A DNA stretch of 64,000 bases, from positions 562-64,561 of the forward strand of contig JACRNU010000019.1 of NCBI GenBank assembly GCA_016234805.1, written 5' to 3'. The position numbers were made by a program, and so were the translations under genes. Position 1 is the first letter of the stretch. Every line of letters starts with the position of its first letter. This DNA comes from Elusimicrobiota bacterium. Its GTDB lineage: Bacteria; Elusimicrobiota; Elusimicrobia; UBA1565; UBA9628. Shown in pieces: positions 6,716 through 48,115 of this stretch. The notes below the pieces were generated by a model. It did no database searches. It was not told the origin of the DNA and saw only the letters and a program-made list of their open reading frames with translations.

Positions 6716-6717
6716 GA

Positions 6718-30126: not shown

Positions 30127-31523
30127 GGCAATGCCGGTCACTTAAGCCGGGTGCCCGTCGTTGCGGGCATAGTTGCTCATCTTGATCTTGACGTGCCTTG
30201 GGTAGCGGCGTTCAGACCGTCTCGGGGGCAAAACAAGCTCCCGCATCTCCACGCGCATGTCGCGGATCACGCCCAATAGAACAAGTCCCGGATGAGCCTC
30301 AGCGAGCCCCGAAAGCTGATCCGGCGTGGCGGCACCCCGCAGTCTGCGGCAACAGCCTCCATTTCGTGACGCACCAAGTTGTAGGCGACGGCCAAGCCCC
30401 AAAGCTCCTGGGCGACACGCTCCGGCGTCTTCGACCGGATCGCCTCCATGCGTTCCAGCGCGTGCGTCTTGATCTCGTCGTAGCCAAGCTCCAATTCCCA
30501 TCGCTCATGGTAGAGCTCCGCAATCTCGGCTGTCGGATACTTCTCCGCGTCCAAGAGAGAGGTCAACAGCACCTGCGGCCGAAACCCCTTCCTGCGGTAG
30601 CGGACTACGCGCGCCAGGAACTTCTCCGGCAGATCAGGATGCTTGGCCCTCAGATTGCGAGGAAACTCAATCTCCACAAGGGCGTCCCCGCGTCCCAGCG
30701 ACTTCACTGCACGCCACTTCAACCCTTTTCTGCCACGCGCCAGCCAGTGCCGCTCCTCTCCGCCAGCGCGGATTTGGTGCCACAGATGGTAGTTGATGTA
30801 ATAGCGGTCCAGGACGACCAACGAATACGACGGCAAACGTTCCAACAGCAGGGTTGCCAGACCGATCTCCCCCGGCCCTGTCCGGCATCCGGCGAAGTTG
30901 AAGCCCAAGAGCAAGTGGCTGCGCAGAACCATCAGTCCGACCGCGCGGACTTGGGGATACCCTGCGGAGCGACGACTCGATCCCGGAAGCCCGAACGCCG
31001 TCCGGTTCTCCTTGGTGTCGGGCACCCGTATTCCCGTCCCATCCGCACCCAAAACCATCAGCCCGTGCCAACGGTGACGCTCCGCCGAGGCCAGCGCCCA
31101 GTGCCGTGCTGTCGTCTCGAACAGTTCCCGCACCGGCTCCGGTCCCACACGGTCTCGGGCCGGGGGGATAGCCCCTTGGCTTACGCCCTGGCGCTTGCCG
31201 TCGGGACCGGGCAAGACCAAGTCCAGCCGCCGCACGATCTCGGCAATGGGTCGGTCGCGATACAACGCCATCCCCACCACCAGCCACATCACCTGCTCCA
31301 CCGCCAACTTGCGGTTGCGAACCGTCGCGACGCCGTGCATCGTCAACGACGATTTTACCCACTCAACATCAACCTGCGATTTCAGCCCCTCGAACGACGC
31401 TGGAAGAGTGCCATCGCTCAGGGAAATGAGCGACGATGCCAGTCCCATGAGTCCCCCTTCTCGGCGCTGGGGGATATTATGTCATTTCCCGTCGGAGGAC
31501 GGGCTTAAGTGACCGGCATTGCC
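30127..31523 (-). mobile_element. IS4-family insertion sequence (~1.4 kb) with 22-bp perfect terminal inverted repeats
   Basis: IRL 30127-30148 GGCAATGCCGGTCACTTAAGCC equals the reverse complement of IRR 31502-31523. A single DDE transposase ORF lies inside. Confidence 0.8.
30267..31448 (-). CDS. IS4-family DDE transposase
   Basis: 393 aa with IS4 YREK-region signature (AEIAELYHERWELELGYDEIK) and DDE residues. Confidence 0.85.
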   Translation of the reverse strand: MGLASSLISLSDGTLPASFEGLKSQVDVEWVKSSLTMHGVATVRNRKLAVEQVMWLVVGMALYRDRPIAEIVRRLDLVLPGPDGKRQGVSQGAIPPARDRVGPEPVRELFETTARHWALASAERHRWHGLMVLGADGTGIRVPDTKENRTAFGLPGSSRRSAGYPQVRAVGLMVLRSHLLLGFNFAGCRTGPGEIGLATLLLERLPSYSLVVLDRYYINYHLWHQIRAGGEERHWLARGRKGLKWRAVKSLGRGDALVEIEFPRNLRAKHPDLPEKFLARVVRYRRKGFRPQVLLTSLLDAEKYPTAEIAELYHERWELELGYDEIKTHALERMEAIRSKTPERVAQELWGLAVAYNLVRHEMEAVAADCGVPPRRISFRGSLRLIRDLFYWA

Positions 31524-32342
31524 CCCCTCTTCGTCGAAGATGAGGTAATCGAAGGTGACGCTGGCCTTGCCGATGTCCGAGATGCAGGTGCGCACCGAGA
31601 GCAGGTCGTCGTAGCGGCTCGCGGCCAGATAGCGGCACCCGGCCTCCACCACGGGCAGGAAGAGCTTGCGCTGGACCTCGAGGTCGCGGTAGCGCACCCC
31701 GAGCGACCTCAGGAGTTCAACCCTGCCCAGCTCGAAGAACTTGAAGTAGTTGGCGTAGTAGATGACCCCCATCTTGTCCGTATCGGCGTAGGTGACGCGC
31801 ACGTTGAACTCGTGGAAGCGCACCCGGGACGCCTTGGGATGGGGCCGGGCCTCGGCCGGAGGGGACGCCGCGCGTTCGGCCTTGGACGGCGGCAGCGGCG
31901 AAGGCTGCCGTGCCGGCGGCGGAGGAGGGACCGGGAAGAACGGCTCCTCAGGCGCGCTCCCCACCGAGAGCCCGAGCACCGAGTTCAGGATGGAGATGAA
32001 CTGGTTGAGGCCCATGGGCTTGCGCACGAAGAAAGTGTTGGGGCCAGGGCGGATCCGGGAACGGATCTCGTCCGCGGAGACCACGCTCGAGAAGATGATG
32101 GGGATCTCCGCCGTGTCCGGGGAGCCGCGCAGCCTCTCGTAGACCGTGTGCCCCCCGCCTCCGGGCATCTGGTAGTCCAGGATGATGGCGTCGGGCTTGG
32201 TCTGATGCGCCTGTAGGACCCCTTGGAGGCCGTCGAAAGCCACGGAGACCCGGTACCCCACGACCTCCAAACCATCCTTGAGCGGGGCGACCAGGTTCTG
32301 GTCGTCATCCACGATGAGGATCTTCTTCGACATCCTCTCCAA
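31482..32342 (-). CDS. Response-regulator receiver fused to a YbgC/4HBT-type hotdog acyl-CoA thioesterase; 3' end interrupted by IS4
   Basis: REC (KKILIVDDDQNL...ILDYQMPGGGG), Pro-rich linker, hotdog domain (VRVTYADTDKMGVIYYANYFKFFELGRVELL). The last 14 codons are encoded by the IS4 right end. Confidence 0.65.
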   Translation of the reverse strand: MERMSKKILIVDDDQNLVAPLKDGLEVVGYRVSVAFDGLQGVLQAHQTKPDAIILDYQMPGGGGHTVYERLRGSPDTAEIPIIFSSVVSADEIRSRIRPGPNTFFVRKPMGLNQFISILNSVLGLSVGSAPEEPFFPVPPPPPARQPSPLPPSKAERAASPPAEARPHPKASRVRFHEFNVRVTYADTDKMGVIYYANYFKFFELGRVELLRSLGVRYRDLEVQRKLFLPVVEAGCRYLAASRYDDLLSVRTCISDIGKASVTFDYLIFDEEGGNAGHLSPSSDGK

Positions 32343-32596
32343 GATATCACTTTGCCGGCGCGGATGTCCAACAAACGCCTACAAAACAATGCCTTTTTGC
32401 TCTGAAAGTCGCCGCTCCATGATGGTTTCCACCATGGTCGCCGCCGGCAGCATTGGCGCCGAGCCCTCATGCTCCTGGATATAGGCCTTTAGACCCGGAA
32501 CACAGTAGGCCCCTTGCGCTGTCAAGGGTGGGCCCCCTGCAACTGCCCCCTCTTCCGCATACCGACTACACTTGTAATGAGGGCCAGGAGGAATCT

Positions 32597-34507
32597 ATGA
32601 ACCTGATGAACCGGACTCAGAAGATCGCGAAGGCCGTGCTGGCTGCCTTCTTGTTCGCCGCGCTCGGCACCGCGTCTTTCGCCCAGGCTCCTGGCGGAAA
32701 GCCGGTCGAGAGCCTCCCCCCCGTCGAAGGCCAGGCCAAGCCCCTCCCCGCCCTTCCGCCTCTGACCATCGAGGCCCTCAAGCCGGCCGCTGCCGTTACC
32801 GCTGCGCCCGCGGAGACCCCGGAGCACGTCAAGGCTGCCCAGGCCCTTCAGGACTACGGCCTTCCCCCTGCCATGTACATCCAGGACCCCTCCACCATCG
32901 AGGAGAAGCAGGCCTTTGTCGTGATCTACTCGGTCACCAAGAGCACGCCTTCCCCCATCGGCCGCATCCTGCTCGAGGCGCTCAACGAGACGCCCAAGGA
33001 CAAGGTCCAGAAGATCACCCACAAGAAGCTCTACATGCTCTTCCTCTCAGCCCTCGAGTACGGCAAGCGCTCAGTGGACCCCAGGTACCAGGCCAACCCG
33101 AGCCTGCTCGCCGCCTACAAGGCCAAGATCATGGACGTCATGAACGCCGAGATCCCCGGCGACACCGATTACGTGGGCCTGGGCCGCAAAGGCAAGTCCC
33201 TCCGCGAGGTGCTCAAGAACCGCGAGGACGCCCTCAAGCTCGTGGTCGAGACCCTCGACAAGCTTCCGGACGCGGAGAAGGCCAAGGTCGCTGACAAGAA
33301 GGGCTTCCTCGACAAGGTCATCAAGGAGATGGACGCCCTGCAGCTCAGCGGCAACGGCGCCGTGCTCGTGCCCGAGACCCTCGTAACCATCGTGAAGCTG
33401 ATCCCTGAGAAGGAACTTACGGCCGGGCAGTGGCAGGCGGTCTTCGACTCCTACCCCATGGGCCACAGCCTCTGGGCCGACCGCGTGGACCTGGCCTGGC
33501 GCAAGGGCATCACGGGCAAGGGCGTCACCGTGGCCATCATCGACACCGGCATCGACAAGAGCCACCCCCTCGTGGCCGGCGCGGTGACGGATTGGGAGAA
33601 CCTCACCAACCACCGCTACATCGACCGCAACGCCGTGGACGCCTCTGGCAAAAGCCTCTTCGGCGCCCCTGACAACCGCGGCGGGCACGGCACGCACATG
33701 GCCGGGGTGCTCCACTCCTTCGCACCGGACGCCAAGATCATGAGCATCAAGGCCCTCGACGAGGAGGCCCGCGACCAGATCCCCGACGAGCTTCAGAACG
33801 ACCTGCCCGCCACCATGGCGGCCATCGCCGGCAGCCTTGAAAAAGTCTACAACCACAACCGGGACGTGGCCGCGGGGACCAAGAAGGGCGACCGCATCGA
33901 CGTGGTGAGCATGAGCCTCGGCGTCCCGAAATCCAACGCCCATGCGGTCGGTCCCCAGACCGACGCCATCAGCGCGTGGGTCAAGAAGCTCCACAGCCAG
34001 GGCGTGGTCGTGGTCGTGGCCGCGGGCAACGAGGGCCAGACCAATATCTCCCGGCCCGGCTACATTCCCGAAGCCATCACGGTCGGCGCCGTGGACTACT
34101 TCAAGCGCGTGGCCGCGTTCTCCTCGGACGGCGCGGTGGCCGTGCCCGAGGCGGGCAAGATCCTCCAGAAGCCGGACGTCTTCGGCTACGGCGTGGGCGT
34201 GCGTTCGGCCAAGTACGACCCGGCCGCGGACTACTCCAAGCTCGTCACCGACCAGCTCATCGCCGCGGGCAACGGCACCTCGCCCGCGGCCCCGCACGTG
34301 GCCGCGGTGACGGCCATGCTCATCCAGTCCGGCCGGCAGATGGGCATCGAGCTCGGCCCGGAGCAGATCCGTACCATCCTAAAGGAAAGCTCCACGGCCA
34401 CGGCCAACGGCAACCCCTACGCCGGCGGCATGGGCGGGGTGGTCAGCGCCTCCCGGGCCCTGGACTACCTGCAGAAGAACCTGTCGAAGTTCAAGAAGAA
34501 GAGCTGA
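32597..34507 (+). CDS. Secreted subtilisin-like serine peptidase (S8 family)
   Basis: Signal peptide. Catalytic triad contexts AIIDTGID, HGTHMAGV, GTSPAAPHVAAV. GGAGGA before ATG 32597. Confidence 0.85.
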   Translation: MNLMNRTQKIAKAVLAAFLFAALGTASFAQAPGGKPVESLPPVEGQAKPLPALPPLTIEALKPAAAVTAAPAETPEHVKAAQALQDYGLPPAMYIQDPSTIEEKQAFVVIYSVTKSTPSPIGRILLEALNETPKDKVQKITHKKLYMLFLSALEYGKRSVDPRYQANPSLLAAYKAKIMDVMNAEIPGDTDYVGLGRKGKSLREVLKNREDALKLVVETLDKLPDAEKAKVADKKGFLDKVIKEMDALQLSGNGAVLVPETLVTIVKLIPEKELTAGQWQAVFDSYPMGHSLWADRVDLAWRKGITGKGVTVAIIDTGIDKSHPLVAGAVTDWENLTNHRYIDRNAVDASGKSLFGAPDNRGGHGTHMAGVLHSFAPDAKIMSIKALDEEARDQIPDELQNDLPATMAAIAGSLEKVYNHNRDVAAGTKKGDRIDVVSMSLGVPKSNAHAVGPQTDAISAWVKKLHSQGVVVVVAAGNEGQTNISRPGYIPEAITVGAVDYFKRVAAFSSDGAVAVPEAGKILQKPDVFGYGVGVRSAKYDPAADYSKLVTDQLIAAGNGTSPAAPHVAAVTAMLIQSGRQMGIELGPEQIRTILKESSTATANGNPYAGGMGGVVSASRALDYLQKNLSKFKKKS

Positions 34508-34531
34508 GACAGATACCGATCCGCGTCGATA

Positions 34532-34559
34532 GCGCCCCCCGCCGCCAGGCGGGGGGCGC
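34532..34559. terminator. GC-rich hairpin between convergent genes (putative bidirectional terminator)
   Basis: GCGCCCCCCGCC-GCCA-GGCGGGGGGCGC forms a 12-bp perfect stem. No clear U-tract on either strand. Confidence 0.4.
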
Positions 34560-34564
34560 CGCGC

Positions 34565-35761
34565 TTATAGGTGGATCCTGCAGGCCACAGGGTCCGGAGC
34601 GTTGAAGCTGCCTGCCAGCATCCTGGCCCGGACCCGGCAGCCTCCGCGGCAGGCGGAGAAGGCCGCGCAGGCGCGGCAGGCCGCGAGCCCGGCCCAATCC
34701 AAACGGCTCACCACGGACCCTTCAGGGCCGGCCCGGAGGATCTGCGCCAGCGAGGATTGGCCGAGGTCGCCAAGGGGCTCGCGGAGGTTCTGGAAGTAAT
34801 GGCAGGCGAAGACCTGCCCGTCCGCGGCCACGAAGCACTGCTCGACGCCTGCCGCGCAGTCGAAGCCGGACGCGGGCAGGCCGCCCCGGGAGCGCCTGAT
34901 CGAGTCATCCTCGAGCATCCCGGCCTTGGCCAGGCTCTTGAGCGCCGCGTCCTCCAGGCCGAACCTGCCGCCCGCGGACTCGCCTCTGCCGATGGGCATG
35001 ACAGCCGAGAACCTCACCCCGGAAACGCCGAGGTCCTGCCGGCAGAACCTCGCGAAGTCAGCGGCTGAAGACGCGTTCTCCCGCGTGACCATGGAGGTGA
35101 CGAACACCCGCAGTCCTTGGGAGACCAGCGCACGGACCCCGGCCACGGCAGCCGCGAAGGCTCCCGCGCCCCGCAGTCCGTCGTGGTGCTTTTCGAAGGA
35201 GTCCAGGCTCACCACCACCTTGGCCGTACCCGCTTGCGCGAGGAGGCCGGCGATGCCTGGGTCCATGAGCGTGGCATTGGTCATCACCACCACCCTCATG
35301 CCGGCTGAGCGCGCGTCCCTCACAGCGCGGCTGAACAGCGGGTTGAGGAGCGGCTCCCCCCCGTTGAAGACCACGGAGACCGCGCCCAGGCTGCGGCCGC
35401 CCTCCAGGGCAGCCTCCAGGACCCCGGCGGACATGTGCCTGCCGGAGAGTTCGGCAAAGCAATGCCCGCAGGAGAGGTTGCACGCGCCCGAGAGTTCGAG
35501 CTCGAGGGTGGAGAGCAGGCCGGCATCCCTCACCGAGAGGTCTTCCTGTCCGCCAGGCCCGGAAACGACTAGGCCGCGGGCGGAAAGCTTGTCATGGATG
35601 AGCTTCTCCTGGCCGGTCAGGTCCTCCACCCGCTCCCTCGCCAGCAGGGCCTTGAGGGTCTCCAGGGCCTCCTGGTTCATCCTGACCTTATAAGAGCTCT
35701 TGAGGTGGTGCAGCCAATACCCCTCCCGGCTCCGCTTGACGACGCAGTCCTTCAGCCTCAT
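34565..35761 (-). CDS. Radical SAM / SPASM-domain peptide-modifying enzyme with N-terminal RRE-like (PqqD-like) extension
   Basis: CX3CX2C motif CNLSCGHC at ~residue 103 and C-terminal SPASM cysteines (CAAGVEQC...C...CRACAAFSACRGGC). The ~95-aa N-terminal extension resembles RiPP recognition elements. Confidence 0.85.
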   Translation of the reverse strand: MRLKDCVVKRSREGYWLHHLKSSYKVRMNQEALETLKALLARERVEDLTGQEKLIHDKLSARGLVVSGPGGQEDLSVRDAGLLSTLELELSGACNLSCGHCFAELSGRHMSAGVLEAALEGGRSLGAVSVVFNGGEPLLNPLFSRAVRDARSAGMRVVVMTNATLMDPGIAGLLAQAGTAKVVVSLDSFEKHHDGLRGAGAFAAAVAGVRALVSQGLRVFVTSMVTRENASSAADFARFCRQDLGVSGVRFSAVMPIGRGESAGGRFGLEDAALKSLAKAGMLEDDSIRRSRGGLPASGFDCAAGVEQCFVAADGQVFACHYFQNLREPLGDLGQSSLAQILRAGPEGSVVSRLDWAGLAACRACAAFSACRGGCRVRARMLAGSFNAPDPVACRIHL

Positions 35762-35851
35762 CCTCGCATCTGATCAAAGAGGAGCCCCGCGGCCGCGGTC
35801 CGGAACTGCTCCGGAGCGCGGCGCGCGGGGCCGTCTACCTCTTGAGCTAAT

Positions 35852-35941
35852 CTACTTCTCGCAGGGTTCGCAATGCGCCTTGTCCGTGAACTCGACCGTC
35901 CGGTCGTCGCACTCTTCGAAGATCATCACGTACCCCCACAT
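35852..35941 (-). CDS. Candidate precursor peptide MWGYVMIFEECDDRTVEFTDKAHCEPCEK (29 aa; 24 aa from the second ATG at 35926)
   Basis: Hand-translated small ORF 90 nt upstream of the rSAM gene on the same strand. GGGGG lies 6 nt before the second ATG, and a strong promoter lies upstream. Three Cys in the C-terminal half. Not in the ORF track because it is shorter than 60 aa. Confidence 0.45.
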   Translation of the reverse strand: MWGYVMIFEECDDRTVEFTDKAHCEPCEK

Positions 35942-35977
35942 TATGGAATGTCCGACCTAACAACCCTATACATTTTG

Positions 35978-36005
35978 ATTGTATCACAAAACCGCGGCGA
36001 TGCAA
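35978..36005 (-). promoter_or_regulatory. Sigma70-type promoter (-35 TTGCAT, 16-nt spacer, extended -10 TGATACAAT) driving the small peptide gene
   Basis: Minus-strand sequence ccTTGCATcgccgcggttttgTGaTACAATcaaaatg. AT-rich island in a GC-rich region, ~30 nt upstream of the peptide ATG. Confidence 0.45.
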
Positions 36006-36064
36006 CAAGGTATTTCATCCTTCAATATCGCCCCAGACCGGCCTGCGACTGCCGCGTCATCTCC

Positions 36065-37432
36065 TCATCCAGCGGCGACCGCGGCCGAATAGCCGAGCCC
36101 CTCGACAGCCTCCAGGAGGCGCTTGATATCGACCTTGCCTCCGCGCACCACGGCCTTGCCGGCGGCGAGGTCCACCTCGGCCGACTCCACTCCCTCGCAC
36201 TCCGAGAGGGCCCTGCGTACGCTCGCGGTGCAATGGCCGCAGGTCATGCCCGTGACCTTCAGGATGACCGAGTCCCGGCTGTCACCGCCATCCCCGAAGG
36301 ACAGCCGGGACGCTCGGCCTCCGGCCTTGACCGCGTCCCGATCCGCCGATGTCCCTCCTGAGTTTTCCGGCATCACCTTGAGCCTCCGCAGCCACCCGGG
36401 GACAACGGCCGCGCCCAGGACCGCCAGGAGCGCCACGCCGCTGAGCGTCTCCCAGGAGCCGCTCCCGGAGTGATGCAGGTGCTCGGCCATGGACACGCGC
36501 AGGTCCGGGAGGACCATGTCCAGCGCCCACCCGGACAGAAGAGAGACGACCGCGATCGCGGCAAGGTAGACCCAGGCGGTCCTTTTCCCCATGGTCTTCC
36601 AGACCATGGCGACCGTGGCCGCGTTCGTCGCCGGGCCGGTCATCAGGAAGACGAACGCCGCTCCCGGGGACACGCCCTTGGCGACCAGGGCCGCGGCGAT
36701 GGGCACCGAGGCGGTCGCGCAGACATAGGTCGGTATGCCGATGGCCATCATGACCAGCATGCTCGCGAAGTCCGCCCAGCCCGGTCCCAGCGCGTCCGAG
36801 AGAGGGCCCAAAAGCTTGTGGAAGAAGCGGGGAGGGAGCAAGGCCGAGATGAGCCCCGCGATCGCCAGCCCGACCAGCATGGCCGAGCCGATGTCCCTCG
36901 GCAGGGCGACGAAGCCGTAGTGGAGGGCGTCCCGGACTCCGCCCCGCATCCACGAGGAAGAGGCGCCGGCCTTCCTTCCCGCGGGAGCAGGCGGCCGTTT
37001 CCCGTCCCCCTGCTTGTCTTCCAGCAGGTCCACGGCCATCCCCCCCGCGATGCCGCTGATAAAAGCCGCCAGCACGCGGAATACGGTGAACACCGGGCCG
37101 AGGAAGCTGTAGGTCACGAGGATGCTGTCCACGCCGGTCTGGGGAGTGGAGATGAGGAAGGATATCGTCGCCCCCCTGCTGGCGCCATGGCTCCTTAGGG
37201 AAGCAGCCACCGGTATGACCCCGCACGAGCACAGCGGAAGGGGCACGCCGAACAGCGAGGCCTTGACCACGGCCCACCACGGCCGCTGCGCCCCGCCAAG
37301 GTGCCTCTCCACCGCATCGGGCGAGACGAGCACGGAGAGGACCCCGGCCACCGCGAACCCGAAGAGGAGGTAGGGCGCCATCAGCGAGAGGGAGGACCAG
37401 AAGCCCCAAGCGACGCCGCCCAAAGCCTCCAT
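36065..37432 (-). CDS. DUF318/SO_0444-type permease with C-terminal heavy-metal-associated (HMA) domain
   Basis: Polytopic permease with paired Cys (PLCSCGVIPV) and a C-terminal GMTCGHC ferredoxin-like HMA domain. Confidence 0.7.
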   Translation of the reverse strand: MEALGGVAWGFWSSLSLMAPYLLFGFAVAGVLSVLVSPDAVERHLGGAQRPWWAVVKASLFGVPLPLCSCGVIPVAASLRSHGASRGATISFLISTPQTGVDSILVTYSFLGPVFTVFRVLAAFISGIAGGMAVDLLEDKQGDGKRPPAPAGRKAGASSSWMRGGVRDALHYGFVALPRDIGSAMLVGLAIAGLISALLPPRFFHKLLGPLSDALGPGWADFASMLVMMAIGIPTYVCATASVPIAAALVAKGVSPGAAFVFLMTGPATNAATVAMVWKTMGKRTAWVYLAAIAVVSLLSGWALDMVLPDLRVSMAEHLHHSGSGSWETLSGVALLAVLGAAVVPGWLRRLKVMPENSGGTSADRDAVKAGGRASRLSFGDGGDSRDSVILKVTGMTCGHCTASVRRALSECEGVESAEVDLAAGKAVVRGGKVDIKRLLEAVEGLGYSAAVAAG

Positions 37433-37482
37433 CAGAGTCCCTCTGCCACGCAGAGCCGTTCCTTGGCCGCGGCGGTCCGCAT

Positions 37483-37755
37483 TCAGTCCTCCCAACTCCC
37501 GAGCAGGTTCTTGATCTCCCCCATCTTGGTCTCGATCTGGGCCTTATCCCGGGACTGGATGGCGGTCGTCACGCAGGTGCGCAGATGGCCGTCGAGGATC
37601 TCGATGCCGACCCGCTTCAAGGCCGCGCGGACCGCCTTGATCTGCTGGGCGATGTCGATGCAGTAGCGGCCCTCATCCACCATCTTCCTGATGCCCCGGA
37701 CCTGCCCCTCGATGCGGTTGAGCCTTTTTACGCGATCCCGATCCCCGTGTTCCAT
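37483..37755 (-). CDS. csoR: CsoR/RcnR-family metal-sensing transcriptional repressor
   Basis: RLNRIEGQVRGIRKMVDEGRYCIDIAQQIKAVRAAL...HLRTC, with conserved metal ligands Cys/His/Cys. Confidence 0.8.
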   Translation of the reverse strand: MEHGDRDRVKRLNRIEGQVRGIRKMVDEGRYCIDIAQQIKAVRAALKRVGIEILDGHLRTCVTTAIQSRDKAQIETKMGEIKNLLGSWED

Positions 37756-37788
37756 GAGTTGTCCTCTGCTCCCCTCGCGGCCGCCTCA

Positions 37789-37810
37789 TATACTATACCA
37801 TAGTATAGTA
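37789..37810. promoter_or_regulatory. AT-rich inverted repeat ATACTATAC-CATA-GTATAGTAT upstream of csoR (candidate operator/-10 region)
   Basis: 9-bp perfect arms around a 4-nt centre, 34-55 nt upstream of the csoR start codon. Confidence 0.4.
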
Positions 37811-37827
37811 TGTTAGTCAAGGCCCCA

Positions 37828-38448
37828 TCATGGCTTGAACCCCTCATAGAAGCAGACGACCCTCATGGTACGCCCTTCAGGACGCACATCCCGCAGACCG
37901 ACCCGGCGAAGCAAGTCCAGGAGGTCCTCCTCGGTCGCCAGATTTTCGAGAAGGGAGAGCGCCTCCAGCAGCCAACGGACAGGGCCTCCTCCCGAGACCA
38001 CGAGGTCCGCCAGCACGAGCCTGCCGCCGGGCTTGAGCACGCGGCCGCATTCCCGAAGCGCGGCCTCCCGCTCCTCGGCCGGCACATGGTGGAAGGCCAG
38101 GGTGGACACCACCACGTCGAAACAGGCGTCCTCGAACGGCAAGCGGCCCATGGAAGCCAGCTCAAGCCGCGGCCGAAGCCCCTTGCGGCCCAGCTTGTCC
38201 GAGGCGATGGCCAGGGCCAGGGCATCGGGGTCCGCTCCGACCGCGTCCAGCCCGGGATGGGCCTCCAACAGGACCTCCAGCAACGCCGCGGTGCCGCAGC
38301 CCGCGTCCAGGAGGCGCTCCCGGCCCGTCAAGCCCAAGCGCCGCAGGATGTCCTTGCGAAAGCCCCGGCCGAGCCCTATCGCCGAACAGAGGGCGTCATA
38401 GAACGGAGTCAGCGCGTGCAGATGCGCCGGCGGGACATGACCGCTCAT
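37828..38448 (-). CDS. Class I SAM-dependent methyltransferase
   Basis: Motif I LLDAGCGTAAL, then a post-I acidic residue and motif II/III spacing. Confidence 0.75.
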   Translation of the reverse strand: MSGHVPPAHLHALTPFYDALCSAIGLGRGFRKDILRRLGLTGRERLLDAGCGTAALLEVLLEAHPGLDAVGADPDALALAIASDKLGRKGLRPRLELASMGRLPFEDACFDVVVSTLAFHHVPAEEREAALRECGRVLKPGGRLVLADLVVSGGGPVRWLLEALSLLENLATEEDLLDLLRRVGLRDVRPEGRTMRVVCFYEGFKP

Positions 38449-38466: not shown

Positions 38467-38895
38467 TTATTGTTTCTCCAGGTTCATCCCGCATTTTGGG
38501 CACCGGCCATCCTTGGTCTTGGGACCCTTGTAACAGCCCATGGAGCAGACATAGACGTCTTCCTTCGTCTGCCCCTGCGCCGCCTGCGCCTTCTTCTGGC
38601 CGGGCGCGGCCTTCTGGCCGCAATGCGCGCAGCCGGCTTCCTTCATGCCCATGTGCGCTGCCGCGACCTGTATCATCTTGACCGCGCCGGGATCCTTGGC
38701 CGTGATGTTGATGACGACCCCGTCCTTGGTGTTGGTCACCTTGACCTCCGCCCCCTCGACATGCGCCGGGCACGTCATCGCATGGCCCCCGCCATGCGCC
38801 TCATGCCCCGGCGCCGCCGACGCTCCCCCCATGCGGGCGAAGAACAGCGACACCGCTCCTGCCGCGAACAGGGCTGCGACGAGCTTCTTGTTCAT
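38467..38895 (-). CDS. Secreted His-rich protein with C-terminal heavy-metal-binding domain (YxCxM...CPKCGM type)
   Basis: Signal peptide MNKKLVAALFAAGAVSL, His-rich stretch, C-terminal YVCSMGCYKGPKTKDGRCPKCGMNL. GGAGG upstream. Confidence 0.6.
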   Translation of the reverse strand: MNKKLVAALFAAGAVSLFFARMGGASAAPGHEAHGGGHAMTCPAHVEGAEVKVTNTKDGVVINITAKDPGAVKMIQVAAAHMGMKEAGCAHCGQKAAPGQKKAQAAQGQTKEDVYVCSMGCYKGPKTKDGRCPKCGMNLEKQ

Positions 38896-39075
38896 GTGTT
38901 CATGACCTCCCTGTCGGTTCCAGGCGTTCCGGGCGGCAAAGCCGCCCAGAGTCCGAGGCCGACCTTCCGCACTCTGCGCACACCCAGCGCGCCTTGCGGG
39001 CAACGGCGATGAGCTCGGCCAGACCGGGCTTCCTGCCCATGAGTTCGCACATGTGCTCGATCTTCTCCTGCTTCT

Positions 39076-39648
39076 TCATTTCCCAACCTCCTGTTCAGGC
39101 TCTCTCTTCGAATCCAGGTCGCCTTCTCCCGTCCCAAGCAGTTTCTTCGCCATGCCGATCCAGGCCCGGACCAAGGCGGCCTCGTCCGGCCTGAGCGCCG
39201 AATCCCAGTGCATGACGCGGTAGTACCAGGGCGGCATGGACCCGTCTTGGACCACCTCATCCAAGGCCTCGAGGTTCTCCCGGAGCGAGCCGTGGCCGCC
39301 GAACGGAAAGCCCGTCCGCATGTCCAGATGTTTCTTGGCGGTGCGCATGTCGTAGAGCATGAGGTGCTTGGCGCCCGGGACGGCGAAATACCACGGCAAA
39401 GGCCTGCCGCTCCCATGGCAGTCGAAGCACTTCTTGAGGAAGATGGGCTTGACCTGGCGCAGATAGGCCGCGTTGATCCGAGCCATGGCCCCTTCGCGGT
39501 CCGCGGCCGGGGAGCCGATCCCCGTCGGCGCGGTCGGAACCGAGACTCCGTCTCCGGGATGTTTCACACCCTTGTGCGCCGCCGCATAAGACGCCAGAAG
39601 GACGGCGCACAACGACAGAAGGGAAGCCAGCCCCGGTCTCTTGGTCAT
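39076..39648 (-). CDS. Secreted haem-binding-motif (CxxCH) protein
   Basis: Signal peptide MTKRPGLASLLSLCAVLLA and single CFDCH motif. ATGA overlap with the cusA stop. Confidence 0.5.
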   Translation of the reverse strand: MTKRPGLASLLSLCAVLLASYAAAHKGVKHPGDGVSVPTAPTGIGSPAADREGAMARINAAYLRQVKPIFLKKCFDCHGSGRPLPWYFAVPGAKHLMLYDMRTAKKHLDMRTGFPFGGHGSLRENLEALDEVVQDGSMPPWYYRVMHWDSALRPDEAALVRAWIGMAKKLLGTGEGDLDSKREPEQEVGK

Positions 39649-42600
39649 CGTCTCAGCTCCGGGATGGGGAGCTTCGAAACATCCACCGTGCCGTGCTTCA
39701 TCTCGTGATGCCACTTCCACAGGTAGAATACCGGCGGGTACACCAGGAGCTCGAGGAGGAAGCTGCTGAAGAGCCCCCCGATCATGGGAGCCGCGATGCG
39801 CTTCATGAGGTCCGCGCCCGTGCCCAGGGACCACATGATGGGGATAAGGCCCATGAAGGCGCAGGCGACGGTCATCATCTTGGGCCGCACCCTCTTGACC
39901 GCGCCGTGGAGCACCGCCTCCTCGAGGTCCGCCTCCGTGGACATGCGTCCCCGGCGGACCATGTCGTAGTAGGCCATGTCGAGGTAGAGGAGCATGAAGA
40001 CCCCGGTCTCGGCGTCAAGGCCCATCAAGGCGATCATGCCCACCCAGACCGCAATGGAGATGTTGTAATCGAGCCCCCAGAGGAACCAGATCGCTCCGAT
40101 GAGCGAGAACGGCACGGCCAGCATCACGATCCCGGTCTTGGCCCAGGACCCGGTGTTGAGGTGGAGCAGGAAGACGATGATGAAGAGCGTGAGCGGGATG
40201 ACGACCTTGAGCCGCTCCTTGACCCTGGCCATGTTCTCGTATTGGCCGCTCCACGCCAGGGAGTAGCCCGTGGGAAGGCGCAGGGCTTTTGCCGCCTTGT
40301 CCTTGGCCTCCTTGACATACCCTCCGATGTCGCGTCCGGCCACATCCACGTAGACGTAGCCGGCCAGCATGCCGTTCTCATTGCGGATCATGGCGGGCCC
40401 GAGCTTCAAGCCGATGTCGGCCAGCTGGGCCAGGGGGACCTGTGCCCCTCCCATGGTGGGCACGAGCACGCACTTGAGCTTGTCCAGGTCGTCGCGGAAC
40501 TCCCGGCCGTAGCGCACGCTGACCGTATAGCGCTCGCGGCCCTCCACCGTGGTGGTGATCGGCTCGCCTCCGATGGCGGTCATGATCACCATCTGCGCTT
40601 CCTTGATGGTCAAGCCGTAGCGGGCCAGCGCCTCGCGCTTGAGCGTGAAGTCCACGAAGTACCCGCCGGCGGTGCGCTCGGCGTAGACGCTCCGGGTCCC
40701 GGGCACTCCCTTCAGGATGCCTTCCAGGTCCGTGCCGATCCTCTCGATCTCGGCAAGATCCGAGCCGAAGACCTTGATGCCGATGGGGGTACGCACCCCG
40801 GTGCTCAGCATGTCGATGCGGGCCTTGATGGGCATGGTCCAGGCGTTCGTGACCCCGGGGAAGCGCATCTTGGAGTCGATCTCCGCGACCAGCTCCTCCC
40901 AGGTGATGCGGTCGTACCAGATGTGCCGCAGGAGACCTTGCAGGGGTCCCGGCGCCCATGAGGAATACCAACGGGGCTTGCGCCGCCATTCCTCATGGGG
41001 CTTCAAGACCACGGTGGTCTCCATCATGGAGAAGGGTGCCGGGTCCGTGGAGGTCTCAGCCCTGCCTGCCTTGCCGAACACCCGCTCGACCTCGGGGAAG
41101 CTCTTCAGGACGCGGTCCTGGGACTCAAGCAGGCTGCGGGCCTCGGTGACCGAGAGGCCGGGCAGGGTCGTGGGCATGTAGAGGATGGTCCCCTCGTTCA
41201 AGGGCGGCATGAACTCAGAGCCCAGGCGCAGGTAGACCGGGATCGTGGTCAGGACCATCAGTCCTGCCGCGGCAATGACCTTGTAGGGATGCCGCAGGAC
41301 GATCCTGCACACAGGCTCGTAGACCCTGAAGAGCAGGCGGCTAACCGGGTGCCGCTCCTCGGGGTAGTACCTGCCGACCGTGACCTGGTTGTAGACCCAG
41401 GCGAGCCACGCAGGCTTGAAGCTCACGAAATCCATGCGCGAGAAGAGCATGCGCACGGCCGGGTCGAAGGTGATGGCCAGAACCGCGGCGATGGCCATGG
41501 CCAGGTTCTTCGTGTAGGCCAGGGGCTTGAAGAGCCGGCCTTCCTGGTCCACCAAAGTGAAGATGGGCATGAATGCCACCGCGATGACCAGGAGAGAGAA
41601 GAAGACCGCGGGACCCACTTCCTGCAGGGCCTTGAGCCTGATCTCGTGGAAGTCCCCCTTCCTCCCGCCCTCGATCCAGAGCTGGAGCTTCTTATACGCG
41701 TTCTCGACCTCCACGATGGCGCCGTCGACCAAGATGCCGATCGAGATGGCGATGCCCGAGATGGACATGATGTTCGCGGTCAACCCCATGAAGTACATGG
41801 GGATGAATACCAGCACCACGGACACCGGGATGGTGATGATGGGGATGATGGCGGTGGGGATGTGCCAGAGGAACACGAGGATGACGAGGCTCACGATCAC
41901 GAGCATGAGCACCAGCTCTTCCTTGAGCGTGGAGATGGCGCGCTCGATGAGGTCGGACCGGTCGTAGGTCGTCACCACCTCCACTCCCTCGGGCAAGGAG
42001 GGACGGATCTCTTCGAGCTTGGCCTTGACCCTGGCGATGACGTTGAGGGCGTTCTCGCCGAAGCGCATGACCACGATGCCGCCGGCCGTGTCTCCCCCGC
42101 CGTCCAGGTCAGCGACCCCGCGCCGGATCTCGGGGCCGAGCGCGACATGGCCGAGGCTCTTGACGAGGATGGGCGTGCCTCCCATGCTCCGCCCGACCAC
42201 GATGTCCTCGATGTCCTGGATGGACTTGGCATAGCCGCGGCCCCGGACCATGTACTCCGTGCCCGCGAATTCGACGAGCCTGCCGCCCACGTCGTTGTTG
42301 CCGTCCCGGATGGCTTCAACGACCTTCATCAGCGGGATGTTGTAGGCCACCAGCGCGTTGGGGTCAAGGCTGACCTGGTACTGCTTCTGGAACCCGCCGA
42401 TGGAGGCGACCTCGGCCACTCCCGGGACGGACTGCAGGTAATAGCGCAGATACCAGTCCTGATAGCTCCGAAGGTCAGCGAGACTGTGGCTGCCGCTCTT
42501 GTCCACCAGGGCGTACTGGAAGACCCAGCCCACGCCCGTGGCGTCAGGACCAAGCTCGGTGCGCACCCCGTCCGGCAGTTGGGGCAGGATCTTGCTCAGG

Positions 42601-42935
42601 TACTCCAGGGTCCGGCTGCGCGCCCAATAGACGTCCGTGCCGTCCTGGAAGATGACATAGACGTAGGAGTACCCGAAGTCCGAGAAGCCCCGGATGGCCT
42701 TGACCTTGGGAGCCCCCAAAAGGGCCGTCACGATGGGATAGGTGACCTGGTCCTCGATCACGTCCGGCGACCGGTCCCACCGCGAATAGATGATGACCTG
42801 GGTGTCCGAAAGGTCCGGGATGGCGTCCAACCGGGAGTTGCGGATGCAGTAGTAAGACGCGGCCAGCGCGCCCGCGGTGAGCACCAGGACGATGAACTTG
42901 TTCCTTGCGGACCACGCGATCAGTTTTTCGATCAT
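39645..42935 (-). CDS. cusA: CusA/CzcA-family heavy-metal efflux RND transporter
   Basis: 1096 aa, 12-TM RND with two large periplasmic loops. N-terminus MIEKLIAWSARNKFIVLVLT is typical of the HME-RND family. Confidence 0.9.
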   Translation of the reverse strand: MIEKLIAWSARNKFIVLVLTAGALAASYYCIRNSRLDAIPDLSDTQVIIYSRWDRSPDVIEDQVTYPIVTALLGAPKVKAIRGFSDFGYSYVYVIFQDGTDVYWARSRTLEYLSKILPQLPDGVRTELGPDATGVGWVFQYALVDKSGSHSLADLRSYQDWYLRYYLQSVPGVAEVASIGGFQKQYQVSLDPNALVAYNIPLMKVVEAIRDGNNDVGGRLVEFAGTEYMVRGRGYAKSIQDIEDIVVGRSMGGTPILVKSLGHVALGPEIRRGVADLDGGGDTAGGIVVMRFGENALNVIARVKAKLEEIRPSLPEGVEVVTTYDRSDLIERAISTLKEELVLMLVIVSLVILVFLWHIPTAIIPIITIPVSVVLVFIPMYFMGLTANIMSISGIAISIGILVDGAIVEVENAYKKLQLWIEGGRKGDFHEIRLKALQEVGPAVFFSLLVIAVAFMPIFTLVDQEGRLFKPLAYTKNLAMAIAAVLAITFDPAVRMLFSRMDFVSFKPAWLAWVYNQVTVGRYYPEERHPVSRLLFRVYEPVCRIVLRHPYKVIAAAGLMVLTTIPVYLRLGSEFMPPLNEGTILYMPTTLPGLSVTEARSLLESQDRVLKSFPEVERVFGKAGRAETSTDPAPFSMMETTVVLKPHEEWRRKPRWYSSWAPGPLQGLLRHIWYDRITWEELVAEIDSKMRFPGVTNAWTMPIKARIDMLSTGVRTPIGIKVFGSDLAEIERIGTDLEGILKGVPGTRSVYAERTAGGYFVDFTLKREALARYGLTIKEAQMVIMTAIGGEPITTTVEGRERYTVSVRYGREFRDDLDKLKCVLVPTMGGAQVPLAQLADIGLKLGPAMIRNENGMLAGYVYVDVAGRDIGGYVKEAKDKAAKALRLPTGYSLAWSGQYENMARVKERLKVVIPLTLFIIVFLLHLNTGSWAKTGIVMLAVPFSLIGAIWFLWGLDYNISIAVWVGMIALMGLDAETGVFMLLYLDMAYYDMVRRGRMSTEADLEEAVLHGAVKRVRPKMMTVACAFMGLIPIMWSLGTGADLMKRIAAPMIGGLFSSFLLELLVYPPVFYLWKWHHEMKHGTVDVSKLPIPELRR

Positions 42936-44260
42936 TTCGAGATTGCTGCTTTGAGCTTGGACTCGGAGTCGATGAGGAAATTCGCGCTCGTGACCACCTT
43001 CTCGCCTTCTTTCGCTCCAGAGAGAAGCTCGTAAAAGCCTTCGGCCTTCCGGCCCACGCGCAGGACCCGGGGCTCGATGCGGCCCTCCCCGAGGTCCACG
43101 AAAGCCAGCTTCCTCTCCCCGGTGTCGAGAAGCGCCCCCTCGGGGAGCGCGAGCACCCGGCCCAGTCCCGCCTTGATTTCGGCGTTGATGAACATCTCGG
43201 GCTTGAGCATGCCCTCGGGGTCCGGGACCTCGATGCGGGCCCTCAGAGTCCTCGTTTCCGCGGACACGATGGGGTCGAGACTGCGCACCGTGCCGCGGAA
43301 CGAGCGGCCCGGGTAGGCCGCGGCCGTGACTTCCACGGCCTGTCCGGGCTTGACCAAGCCTATCTCGTACTCGTAGACCTGCGCGTAGACCCAGACCGAG
43401 CCCCCGCCGATGAGGAGGCTCGTGGGCGCGGCCGTCCTGGCGCTCTCCGCGATCTGCGCCGGCGTCAGCCCCATCTGGCGCAGCCGCAGGGTCCCGGCGG
43501 CGACGAGGGCGTCCGCGCGCTCCACCGCGTCGGGATAGGGGCTGTCCTTGACCCCGTCCCGGGCACGGACCGCCTCCCGGTACTCGGAAAGGGCGTTGTA
43601 GAGGTCCGGGTCGTAGGCCACCTTGCCCGTGGCCCGGACCGTGGAGGCCAGGTCCCTGCGCTTGATGGGCTCGGACTTCAGTCCGATCATCTGGCGACGC
43701 TCATCCGAAAGGAGGATGCTGGCCTGACCCGCGACCTGCACATCGGACCGCTCCTCGGCGAAGACCGGGATGTAGTCCATGCCCATCTCGTCCTTCATGG
43801 GCACGGGAGAGGAGACCTGGGGCTGCATGGGGTGACGGTAGTAGAGAGGCTTGGCTCCAGGCTGAACGTTGAAGACGATGGTGCCGCAAACCGGACAAGT
43901 CACCTTCTCTCCGACCTGGTGGGGCAGTTCCATCACGCAGTCGGGCATCTTGCACTTGTGCAGGATGCACATCTTCCGGCCGGAAGCAACCGTCCTCGAA
44001 GCCCCGGAAGCGTCCCCTGTGGGCGCGGCAGCGGGCACGGCGGCCGATCCGGTCTCCTCCATGGGGATGAGCTTCATGTTGCAGATAGGGCAATCCCCGG
44101 GCTTGTCCGAGGTGTAGGTCGGATGCATGGGGCAGTAGAAGCGGGCCGAGTGCGCCTCGTGGCCGGACTCGGCCTTGTGCCGAGCCCGATACGCCGCCAC
44201 CCCCGCCCCTGCCGCGACGAGCATCACGCACGCCACGATGAGAAACCCGTTCCTCGTCAT
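42932..44260 (-). CDS. cusB: CusB-like RND periplasmic adaptor with N-terminal metal-binding motifs
   Basis: MFP barrel-sandwich/beta-barrel domains, plus two N-terminal CPxC-type heavy-metal-binding domains (YCPMHPTYTSDKPGDCPICNM, CPVCG). Confidence 0.85.
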   Translation of the reverse strand: MTRNGFLIVACVMLVAAGAGVAAYRARHKAESGHEAHSARFYCPMHPTYTSDKPGDCPICNMKLIPMEETGSAAVPAAAPTGDASGASRTVASGRKMCILHKCKMPDCVMELPHQVGEKVTCPVCGTIVFNVQPGAKPLYYRHPMQPQVSSPVPMKDEMGMDYIPVFAEERSDVQVAGQASILLSDERRQMIGLKSEPIKRRDLASTVRATGKVAYDPDLYNALSEYREAVRARDGVKDSPYPDAVERADALVAAGTLRLRQMGLTPAQIAESARTAAPTSLLIGGGSVWVYAQVYEYEIGLVKPGQAVEVTAAAYPGRSFRGTVRSLDPIVSAETRTLRARIEVPDPEGMLKPEMFINAEIKAGLGRVLALPEGALLDTGERKLAFVDLGEGRIEPRVLRVGRKAEGFYELLSGAKEGEKVVTSANFLIDSESKLKAAISK

Positions 44261-45549: not shown

Positions 45550-45614
45550 TCCCTCTTTTACCAAATTGTGCAATGCCGCAGGTGCTTTCCGCGCAAAGAG
45601 CTTGGATCCATTCC

Positions 45615-47318: not shown

Positions 47319-47557
47319 CCAGATCTCTCCCCTTTCTGGGGCTTGGATTTCATCTCGTCCCATGATCTTCGTGGCCCTCATGCGTCTCAACCGGGAGGCC
47401 TGCCGCAGTGCCCGTGGATTTCGGGACCGCGGCCTCCTGGCTGACGGCCTTCGCGCGCTCCTTGTGCCCCTTATGGGCTTTGTGTCCGAAGAGCAGCATC
47501 CCCCCGCACATAGCGACCATCATGACTGCCATTGCTGCAATCACCATAGCGCCTCCA

Positions 47558-48103
47558 TCACGGCGTCCGACAGGCATCGGCCCCGGCGCCGGCCGCGCTC
47601 CCGCAGGCAGGCCTGCTAGACGGCGCGACCTCGAACCGCGCTTCCGTCTTCCGCGAGCCCTTCGCCTCCAGAGCCATGCCGCATTCCGGACAGCGGCCGT
47701 CCTTGGTCCTGGCCCCGGAGTAATGCCCCATGGGGCAAGAGTAAGCCGCCTCGGCCGTGGACAGCCCGCTCCGCGGAGGCGCGATCACAGGGCCCCCGGC
47801 GCCGGGCAGGAGCTTGTCTCTTTGGGCGAGGAGCTTCTTCAGCTTCTTCTCGAGCTTCTCGCGCTTCTTGGCCGCGATGTCCGGTTTGGCCAATTCCTCG
47901 TCGATCTTCTCGACCTTCTCGCCCAGCCGCTCGAGTTTCTCCAGCCGGGACTTGCGCTCCTCCCTGTCTTCATCCTCCCGGGAGCCGGACATGGGCTCGT
48001 ATCCTCCGTGTCCGCCGTGCCCCCCATGCTGGGCCCAGCACACCCCGGCCGGAACCGCCAGCAACGCCGCCAGCCATAAAAGTCTCATATAAAGGATGCT
48101 CAC
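47558..48103 (-). CDS. Secreted protein with coiled-coil region and heavy-metal-binding domain
   Basis: Signal peptide, QHGGHGGHGG, K/E-rich helix, and YSCPMGHYSGARTKDGRCPECGMAL. Confidence 0.6.
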   Translation of the reverse strand: MSILYMRLLWLAALLAVPAGVCWAQHGGHGGHGGYEPMSGSREDEDREERKSRLEKLERLGEKVEKIDEELAKPDIAAKKREKLEKKLKKLLAQRDKLLPGAGGPVIAPPRSGLSTAEAAYSCPMGHYSGARTKDGRCPECGMALEAKGSRKTEARFEVAPSSRPACGSAAGAGADACRTP

Positions 48104-48115
48104 ATCGCCCCCTTT

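Follow-up and report, generated by a model that had tools for sequence, protein, structure and literature searches.

A conserved short peptide gene beside a radical-SAM/SPASM enzyme gene, usually within bacterial heavy-metal efflux clusters, is a candidate source of a metal-handling natural product

Sactipeptide and ranthipeptide maturases (SkfB, CteB, AlbA, StsB, PapB and NxxcB) are radical-SAM/SPASM enzymes with an N-terminal peptide-recognition domain; they are encoded beside a Cys-containing precursor, with a hairpin ahead of the enzyme gene, and repeated-core precursors occur. Very short precursors are likewise found beside radical-SAM/SPASM enzymes in the peptide-derived cofactor systems PqqA/PqqE and MftA/MftB/MftC. 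In contrast, the known ribosomal copper-binding natural products, the methanobactins and bufferins, are all made by MNIO (DUF692) iron enzymes, and their genes lie in copper-responsive or copper-homeostasis contexts (PMC11626156; PMC10989515). Here we describe a 24-residue peptide gene and an adjacent radical-SAM/SPASM enzyme gene which together form a conserved, so far unnamed and putative peptide-modification pair, usually located inside copper/heavy-metal efflux gene clusters in several bacterial lineages. No NCBIfam or Pfam model covers the family, nor does any paper found in a full-text search that excluded subscription-only articles.

The pair was identified in a 64,000-nt stretch of DNA, hereafter the window, from an Elusimicrobiota bacterium (assembly GCA_016234805.1, contig JACRNU010000019.1, positions 562 to 64,561 of the forward strand). 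Related loci are designated L001 onward. The features of the window, numbered from its first nucleotide, are as follows.

32453-34507 (+): secreted S8 (subtilisin-type) peptidase, convergent with the enzyme gene
34523-34564 (no strand assigned): stem-loop between the convergent ends of the enzyme and S8 peptidase genes, a likely bidirectional terminator
34565-35761 (-): radical-SAM/SPASM enzyme, the putative peptide maturase, 398 aa
34580-34858 (-): SPASM domain of the enzyme
35459-35482 (-): CX3CX2C radical-SAM cluster motif
35576-35761 (-): N-terminal domain, residues 1-62, with a predicted RRE-like fold
35778-35843 (-): GC-rich stem-loop between the peptide and enzyme genes, a likely partial terminator or mRNA-stabilising element
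35852-35926 (-): candidate precursor peptide gene, 24 aa plus stop
35933-35937 (-): ribosome-binding site, GGGGG
35978-36005 (-): promoter-like site, TTGCAT, 16 nt, TG-a-TACAAT (extended -10)
36065-37495 (-): SO_0444-family Cu/Zn efflux permease fused to a C-terminal HMA (CopZ-like) domain
37483-37755 (-): CsoR-family copper-sensing repressor, with a promoter (37792-37820) overlapping a palindromic operator (about 37785-37816)
39645-45618 (-): CusA/CzcA-family RND pump (39645-42935), CusB-like adaptor (42932-44260) and TolC-like outer-membrane factor (44257-45618)
49152-51673 (-): cystathionine gamma-synthase/lyase-family enzyme (49152-50318) and cystathionine beta-synthase (50315-51673), at the head of the same-strand island

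The enzyme carries the motif C94-N-L-S-C98-G-H-C101, and Pfam models place Radical_SAM (PF04055, 60 bits) at residues 89-239 and SPASM (PF13186, 24.5 bits against a cutoff of 21.5) at residues 302-365. When 35 family members were aligned, the three cluster cysteines and seven SPASM cysteines (C302, C320, C362, C365, C371, C375 and C394) were invariant, the latter fitting the pattern CX12GX4C ... CX2CX5CX3C ... C. In order to gain insight into the N-terminal domain, an AlphaFold model was produced (pLDDT 87.4, pTM 0.88) and its secondary structure was assigned with DSSP; strands at residues 6-11, 14-19 and 25-28 were followed by helices at 30-41, 44-46 and 50-61, with block pLDDT of 81-89, a topology which fits an RRE. 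This predicted fold is the only support for an RRE, as Pfam PqqD gave no hit at E <= 10 on three N-terminal domains, and hhalign of the family against a PqqD-bearing relative aligned only from residue 53. The nearest solved structures were SkfB, SuiB, CteB, anSME, ChlB and PqqE.

The small ORF upstream of the enzyme, MWGYVMIFEECDDRTVEFTDKAHCEPCEK, spans 35852-35941 (-), and its stop lies 90 nt before the enzyme ATG. It is translated from its second ATG (35926), 6 nt after the GGGGG run, as MIFEECDDRTVEFTDKAHCEPCEK; the upstream ATG at 35941 would add MWGYV, which is not conserved. In the related loci inspected, a GGAGG-like site (or AAGGAAGGG, GGGGG) lies a few nt, up to about 11, before the homologous M-[IL]-F-E-E start. 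A homologous peptide lies next to the enzyme in 23 of 25 distinct loci with enough flank, far beyond chance, at 35-79% enzyme identity; it is usually directly upstream, but is downstream in L012 and 1.3 kb away, behind an XdhC gene, in L011. Of the two loci without a recognisable peptide, L096/L097 (enzyme at 268 bits) showed no FEE-type peptide although its context is metal-linked, and L098 (235 bits) has an unrelated 42-aa peptide and marks the family boundary. At a further locus, P0024, which had gene calls but no DNA, a 47-aa gene is called just upstream of the enzyme.

The peptide consensus is M-x-F-E-E-x5-V-x7-C-x(2-6)-C, and M1, F3, E4, E5, V11, C19 and C22 are invariant in 14 aligned peptides, whereas the tails vary. 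The original prediction described a three-Cys peptide, but only two of the cysteines are conserved; Cys6 is His in most relatives and Gln in L002. Distant members carry two or three tandem [P/A]-H-C-xn-C cores, which is typical of a RiPP precursor: L093 has 2x AVVSxPHCxDMGCEGDN, L094 has 3x DAAHCDSC and L095 has 3x TDKPHCGGC. Codon differences by position were 752, 706 and 1268, a bias to the third position, and invariant residues use synonymous codons, showing that the peptide is translated. NCBIfam gave no hit at E <= 10 for five peptides, or at E <= 0.1 for the 29-aa form from the window.

Between the peptide and enzyme genes, the inverted repeat GGCCCCGCG...CGCGGGGC folds at -54.4 kcal/mol (z = -3.9), with 0 of 200 shuffles as stable. 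A strong hairpin with a different sequence lies at the same place in 12 of 14 loci, with z from -3.1 to -5.4, in agreement with the original suggestion of an element that could set peptide-to-enzyme stoichiometry. The stem-loop beyond the enzyme gene folds at -40.8 kcal/mol (z = -3.4). A search of Rfam over 30-40 kb of the window found nothing relevant.

The promoter-like site upstream of the peptide was originally described as the best sigma-70 promoter in the window, but this is not the case; its -35 matches 3 of 6 and its -10 matches 5 of 6, the consensus scan does not report it, and a better sigma-70-like site, TTGACT-17-TATAGT, lies at 37820-37792 before csoR. TGTGnTACAAT is kept in L001, although function is not shown. 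The csoR promoter has a perfect 9-bp palindrome, ATACTATAC-TATG-GTATAGTAT, conserved in L001 and L002, whereas no inverted repeat of this kind, and hence no CsoR operator, precedes the peptide. The 125-140-nt gap between the permease gene and the peptide ORF shows no significant structure (z = +0.9) and no predicted terminator, so read-through is possible.

The original link to a copper island stands, and is strengthened by comparative genomics. In the window, the permease scores 340.8 bits against a cutoff of 300 (NF033936) and also matches HMA (PF00403), CsoR scores 100 bits (PF02583), and the RND pump scores 1039.7 bits against a cutoff of 701 (TIGR00914), while CusB and TolC-family models give partial hits. 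The gamma-synthase/lyase-family enzyme (NF005871, 540 against 513) and cystathionine beta-synthase (TIGR01137, 535 against 510) recur as a gene pair beside the peptide-enzyme pair in other lineages. Sixteen of 21 informative loci carry heavy-metal genes nearby (CusA-type RND pumps, HMBD/YHS proteins, a CopA-type ATPase or CsoR), in at least four divergent clades, and in L022 a CopA-type HMA P-type ATPase overlaps the enzyme stop. These counts are not independent, as many metal-positive loci belong to one clade, and five loci show no clear metal genes in the available flanks (L003, L006, L012 and L013, plus L092 with only an OEP gene). An S8 peptidase (PF00082, 116 bits in the window, with a signal-peptide-like N-terminus, MNLMNRTQKIAKAVLAAFLFAALGTASFAQA) lies within about 4 kb in the window, L001, L002, L018 and L090/91, and is a possible but unproven processing protease; no dedicated exporter or protease is universally linked to the pair.

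To determine whether the enzyme belongs to a named family, it was scored against curated models, and no NCBIfam cutoff was reached. StsB was the best hit for the window enzyme, at 107 bits against 625 (91-107 in the family members scored), but the enzyme is about equally distant from many SPASM families (AhbD 102, MftC 94-111). Among other thioether-type models, PapB gave 73-83 against 340, AlbA 51-57 against 850, SCIFF 64.5 against 425 and QhpD 77 against 453. Every core has the two invariant Cys expected of thioether donors, yet the precursor family (FEE leader, HC-xn-C core, 24-31 aa) is unlike any named one, and the setting is heavy-metal efflux rather than bacteriocin or immunity genes. 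The enzyme does not group with anSME (TIGR03942, 56 bits against 349, and 56-78 in the family members scored), having an extra N-terminal domain and a conserved partner peptide, and no sulfatase is nearby. As originally noted, the motifs of PqqA and MftA are absent; the window peptide contains no Tyr, and therefore no E-x3-Y, and ends in ...CEPCEK rather than GVY. TIGR02109 (PqqE) scores 55-67 bits against 381 and TIGR03962 (MftC) 89-111 against 265, the predicted RRE-like domain is fused rather than a separate PqqD or MftB protein, and no other pqq or mft genes were seen among the neighbours scanned.

We reason that the 24-aa ORF is the precursor of a ribosomally made, post-translationally modified peptide (RiPP), and that the adjacent gene encodes its dedicated maturase, a reading held with moderate confidence. 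In this model, the conserved N-terminal part of the peptide (M-[IL]-F-E-E ... V) would act as a leader, held as a strand by the RRE-like domain, placing the C-terminal core, [P/A]-H-C-x(2-6)-C, at the SAM/[4Fe-4S] site; the first Cys does lie at a fixed distance from the leader, at residue 19, or 20 in L016/L023. 5'-Deoxyadenosyl radical chemistry would then modify the core at or next to the two conserved Cys, most likely forming one or two intramolecular thioether cross-links of the sactipeptide or ranthipeptide type. This chemistry is inferred and cannot be read from sequence; moreover, Cys-Cys spacing varies from 2 to 6 and one core is just HCGGC, leaving few acceptor residues for a fixed thioether ring. 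The hairpin presumably yields more peptide message than enzyme message. From gene neighbourhood only, we infer that the product works in copper or heavy-metal homeostasis together with the surrounding efflux island, for example as a metal-binding or metal-buffering peptide, and that in the window it may be expressed by read-through from the CsoR-controlled operon as well as from its own promoter.

A less likely alternative is that the same pair performs different chemistry, the enzyme converting each conserved Cys into a chelating group, such as a thiooxazole-type heterocycle or a thioamide, with the two groups of one HC-xn-C core binding one Cu(I); this would be a radical-SAM route to a methanobactin- or bufferin-like metallophore. 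Two conserved Cys per core with flexible spacing, preceded by His, suit a chelate better than a fixed ring, and the heavy-metal context is strong. Thiooxazoles made from Cys bind copper in bufferins (PMC11626156), and the NCBIfam model for the radical-SAM thio(seleno)oxazole modification maturase SbtM (TIGR04082) provides a precedent within the superfamily. However, similarity to SbtM is weak (48-73 bits against a cutoff of 350, lower than to thioether-forming families), the radical-SAM match starting near position 200 of a 516-position model, and the nearest solved structures include the thioether-forming SkfB and CteB. The peptide also lacks the Sec signal peptide of the periplasmic bufferins and is much shorter than their 60-120 aa, and no DUF692, DUF2063 or MbnC family appeared among the called genes of the annotated loci or the window neighbours scanned.

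It is also conceivable, though improbable, that the peptide is the precursor of a small redox cofactor or prosthetic group, perhaps serving an enzyme matured with XdhC, and that the metal island is a neighbour rather than a partner. The peptide is very short (24-31 aa), MftC is the best NCBIfam hit for two family members (101-111 bits), no universal exporter or protease accompanies the pair, and an XdhC-family maturation factor is translationally coupled to the maturase, or sits between peptide and maturase, in L008/L009, L011, L015, L018 and L090/L091. Against this, in addition to the missing motifs, neighbours and model matches, multi-core precursors and a variable tail are atypical for cofactor precursors, no candidate client oxidoreductase recurs nearby, and the window has no XdhC.

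Slightly less probable still is an exported antimicrobial or signalling RiPP of the sactipeptide or ranthipeptide type that simply rides on mobile heavy-metal islands. L012 has the classic layout of ABC transporter, maturase, precursor and TldD/PmbA peptidases without metal genes, an IS4 transposase lies near the window island, and secreted S8 peptidases lie near the pair in several loci; but metal genes recur in clades that differ in GC content (30-70%) and gene order, including translational coupling to a CopA-type ATPase, most loci lack an immunity gene or dedicated exporter, and the acidic, Cys/His-rich cores look like metal ligands. Finally, although an ORF followed by a strong hairpin resembles an attenuator, the possibility that the ORF is only a regulatory leader peptide, with the enzyme acting on another protein such as a neighbouring HMBD/YHS protein or a sulfatase-type target, was rejected given the variable position of the peptide (L012, L011), its stricter conservation than that of the enzyme, the multi-core repeats, the predicted RRE-like domain and the low anSME score.

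It remains possible, although doubtful, that the pair makes a new class of copper/silver-binding peptide, in which a radical-SAM enzyme, not an MNIO enzyme, turns each of one to three HC-xn-C cores into a high-affinity chelating unit (a heterocycle/thioamide or a thioether-His site), and in which the product works with the RND, SO_0444 or CopA efflux machinery and a Cys-supplying CBS and gamma-lyase pair to buffer or hand over toxic metal. This would be an independent invention of the methanobactin/bufferin strategy, spread across uncultured groundwater and sediment lineages. If the product is a metal-handling peptide, it adds a second enzymatic route to peptide metallophores, a new component to bacterial copper defence, and a short, repeatable HC-xn-C core that could be engineered. 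The family also gives a name and a function lead to unannotated small genes in Elusimicrobia, Sericytochromatia and other uncultured bacteria.

The candidate peptide-modification locus consists of the following elements, read on the minus strand:

34565-35761 (minus strand): gene for a 398-aa protein with the radical-SAM motif C94-x3-C98-x2-C101, in which Pfam finds a Radical_SAM domain at residues 89-239 and a SPASM domain at residues 302-365
35852-35941 (minus strand): small ORF, ninety nucleotides upstream of the enzyme gene, reading MWGYVMIFEECDDRTVEFTDKAHCEPCEK
35926 (minus strand): second ATG of the small ORF, preceded at a distance of 6 nt by a GGGGG run and giving MIFEECDDRTVEFTDKAHCEPCEK
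35778-35843 (minus strand): GC-rich stem-loop between the two genes, folding at -54.4 kcal/mol, with none of 200 shuffles as stable
35978-36005 (minus strand): promoter-like sequence TTGCAT-16-TGaTACAAT

The anatomy in the original prediction was therefore correct, with the exception of the claim that this promoter is the best in the window; its -35 element matches only 3 of 6 positions and it was not reported by a consensus scan, which did report TTGACT-17-TATAGT at 37820-37792, in front of csoR.

In order to determine whether the small ORF is a genuine gene, relatives of the enzyme were collected from genomes and metagenomes (the window itself comes from a groundwater Elusimicrobia metagenome-assembled genome), and the DNA surrounding them was read. 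A homologous peptide ORF was present in 23 of 25 distinct loci with enough flanking sequence, in which enzyme identity to the window ranged from 79% down to about 35%. Some of the peptides are listed below, where L numbers designate the individual loci.

Peptides encoded beside relatives of the enzyme.
L001: MIFEECDDRVVEFTDKAHCEPCEK
L002: MIFEEQDDRSVEFTSKTHCEECDK
L003: MLFEEHHEVAVAVVSKPHCPQTGCDEPGD
L006: MLFEEHMEAEVNVVTEAHCPDMGC
L013 (Sericytochromatia): MTFEEFDPQVVLGKEKPHCEGCKPEEQ
L018-L020: MLFEEH.EVAVAVV..[QE]HC[VI]GDGGDC.H.PD
L022: MLFEEHIDQAVEVVTKPQCPCTCGEPGD

The homologous start is always the second ATG of the window ORF and, in the related loci inspected, a GGAGG-like site lies a few nt upstream of it. 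M1, F3, E4, E5, V11 and two Cys were invariant in 14 aligned peptides; the first Cys is at residue 19, or at residue 20 in loci L016/L023, and the second follows after 2-6 residues. Cys6 of the window peptide is His in most relatives and Gln in L002, so this is a two-Cys family, rather than the three-Cys peptide originally predicted. Codon differences were biased to third positions (1268 against 752 and 706), and invariant residues use several synonymous codons, indicating that selection acts on the protein. In locus L012 the peptide lies downstream of the enzyme, whereas in locus L011 it lies 1.3 kb upstream with an XdhC gene in between; these two arrangements rule out a purely cis-acting leader ORF.

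More distant enzymes (35% identity, full length) sit next to multi-core precursors: that of locus L094 reads MGKILFVEHDENAVYRDAAHCDSCDSVKYADAAHCDSCDSVKYSDAAHCDSCS, that of locus L095 reads ...TDKPHCGGCDDGPTVTDKPHCGGCDDGPALVTDKPHCGGCGER, and that of locus L093 duplicates AVVSxPHCxDMGCEGDN. The unit that matters is thus [P/A]-H-C-xn-C behind an N-terminal leader, which is how RiPP precursors are built. In L094 a second radical-SAM gene (1-1026), unrelated to the maturase and without similarity to it, lies directly upstream of the three-core precursor, and some members may receive a second modification.

In an alignment of 35 family members, the three radical-SAM Cys and seven SPASM Cys (C302, C320, C362, C365, C371, C375 and C394) were invariant, as was C240. 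An AlphaFold model built on that alignment was confident (pLDDT 87.4, pTM 0.88), and in this model the first 62 residues form three strands followed by three helices, the topology of a RiPP recognition element (RRE); sequence methods did not confirm this, and the RRE assignment rests on predicted fold only. The best matches among solved structures are RiPP maturases, the matches being SkfB (28.0), SuiB (25.4), CteB (24.5), anSME (24.4), ChlB (24.4) and PqqE (21.4). No NCBIfam model came near its cutoff, the best being StsB at 107 bits against 625 and MftC at 94-111 against 265. An exhaustive profile search of 1.84 billion cluster representatives found four representatives at 558 bits or more and about ten full-length relatives at 235-381 bits, followed by the general SPASM continuum; this is a small, distinct and uncurated family. 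One relative at 235 bits (locus L098) has an unrelated 42-aa peptide and marks the edge of the family. Another more distant relative of the maturase (268 bits; locus L096) sits in an Rrf2, PALP, maturase, TRASH, YHS, HisKA, YHS, OEP cluster (1497-9240) with no recognisable FEE-type peptide, and its substrate may be a different small ORF or the TRASH protein.

A strong hairpin lies between peptide and enzyme in 12 of 14 loci tested, with a sequence that differs between clades and z ranging from -3.1 to -5.4. This fits the design seen in many RiPP operons, in which the precursor message outnumbers the enzyme message. In the MLFEEH peptide clade, a second hairpin, (G/A)ATTTCCGGG...CCCGGRAGAAGTGAAAGTAACGGAGGT, lies in the 5' UTR of the peptide ORF just after the stop of the upstream YHS/HMBD gene (L003 5737-5809, L008 5807-5879, L015-L020, L022 3655-3727, L090, L093), the stem being replaced by TCTCATATAGG/CCTATATGAGA in L022; the peptide ORF is thus bracketed by two stem-loops, although covariation support is weak (2 of 6 pairs). 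In the window, the 125-140-nt gap between the upstream permease gene and the peptide has no significant structure (z = +0.9) and no predicted terminator, and read-through from the csoR operon is therefore possible. The csoR promoter overlaps a perfect 9-bp palindrome (together at window 37785-37820, minus strand), ATACTATAC-TATG-GTATAGTAT, which is conserved as ATAC[TC][AC]TAC-[TC]ATG-GTATAGTAT in three Elusimicrobia genomes (L001 about 3925-3955; L002 about 2757-2790) and is a likely CsoR operator. No such site precedes the peptide gene.

Every gene in the window from 51673 down to 34565 is on the minus strand, in the order given below.

Genes of the island in the window, all on the minus strand.
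50315-51673: cystathionine beta-synthase (CBS)
49152-50318: cystathionine gamma-synthase/lyase-family enzyme
47558-48688: two HMBD proteins (47558-48103 and 48116-48688)
45615-47390: 591-aa ORF with no Pfam or NCBIfam match, an unknown component of the efflux island
39645-45618: TolC-like, CusB-like and CusA/CzcA
39076-39834: haem-binding-domain protein
38467-39003: HMBD protein
37828-38448: methyltransferase
37483-37755: CsoR
36065-37495: SO_0444 Cu/Zn permease fused to HMA
35852-35926: peptide
34565-35761: maturase

The three small HMBD proteins each end in an HMBD (heavy-metal-binding) motif, and similar YHS/HMBD proteins lie directly upstream of the peptide in eight other loci. About 3 kb beyond the maturase end of the island lies an IS4-family transposase (30267-31448, minus strand; 224 bits against a cutoff of 115), consistent with a mobile metal-resistance island. 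Also nearby, at 31482-32342 (minus strand), a response-regulator receiver domain is fused through a Pro-rich linker to a YbgC/FadM-type acyl-CoA thioesterase, an unusual domain combination.

The same gene set recurs elsewhere, a typical order being OEP, MFP(HMBD), RND, HMBD, CBS, gamma-lyase, YHS/HMBD, peptide, maturase, XdhC, Rrf2. In our tally, 16 of 21 informative loci have heavy-metal genes next to the pair; in an automated clustering of 18 loci, an RND pump appeared in 9, a small YHS/HMBD protein directly upstream in 8, CBS in 8 and the gamma-lyase in 6. These loci are not independent, but even so the link appears in at least four divergent clades: the window clade, L011 at 53% identity, the MLFEEH clade at 42-48%, and L022 at 36% identity and 30% GC, in which a CopA-type HMA P-type ATPase overlaps the maturase stop. 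There are exceptions; L012 (2335-3433 and 5538-8209) is a textbook RiPP cluster, with an ABC transporter upstream and two TldD/PmbA peptidases downstream, and without metal genes, and L003, L006 and L013 show no clear metal genes in the available flanks.

Two further associations were apparent. The cystathionine beta-synthase and gamma-synthase/lyase pair travels with the RND efflux genes and the peptide-maturase pair in several lineages (window 49152-51673, minus strand; L001 7204-9728; L008 1678-4201; L090 4667-7190), joined in L002, L008, L015 and L020 by a MoeB/MoeZ-like ThiF-rhodanese protein, which hints at cysteine or sulfide supply during metal stress. An XdhC-family maturation factor is translationally coupled to the maturase, or sits between peptide and maturase, in L008/L009, L011, L015, L018 and L090/L091 (L008 7290-8090; L090 9251-10051; L011 about 2832-3991). 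Its closest model is the aldehyde-oxidoreductase maturation type, at 262 bits against a cutoff of 350, and the window has none.

We infer that the leader (M-x-F-E-E ... V) binds the N-terminal domain, that the first Cys of the core is held at a fixed distance from it, and that the enzyme performs radical chemistry on the HC-xn-C core. We tentatively favor Cys thioether cross-linking as the single most likely chemistry, although it is short of an even expectation; most characterised Cys-directed SPASM RiPP enzymes appear to carry out this reaction, and SkfB and CteB are among the nearest structures. The variable Cys spacing and the minimal HCGGC core nevertheless leave real room for a less likely alternative, conversion of Cys into a chelating group, for which SbtM provides a radical-SAM precedent and bufferins a copper-binding precedent (PMC11626156).

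The underlying logic of an RRE, a radical-SAM/SPASM enzyme and a short precursor is already known. The family itself, however, did not qualify for any of the curated groups to which it could be compared, namely the sactipeptide/ranthipeptide subfamilies, PqqE, MftC, anSME and SbtM; its peptides are unnamed in public data, and no description of it was found in the full-text literature searched. Known copper RiPPs use MNIO enzymes, none of which is present in the annotated loci. Judging from gene neighbourhood alone, the product more likely than not takes part in copper or heavy-metal handling.
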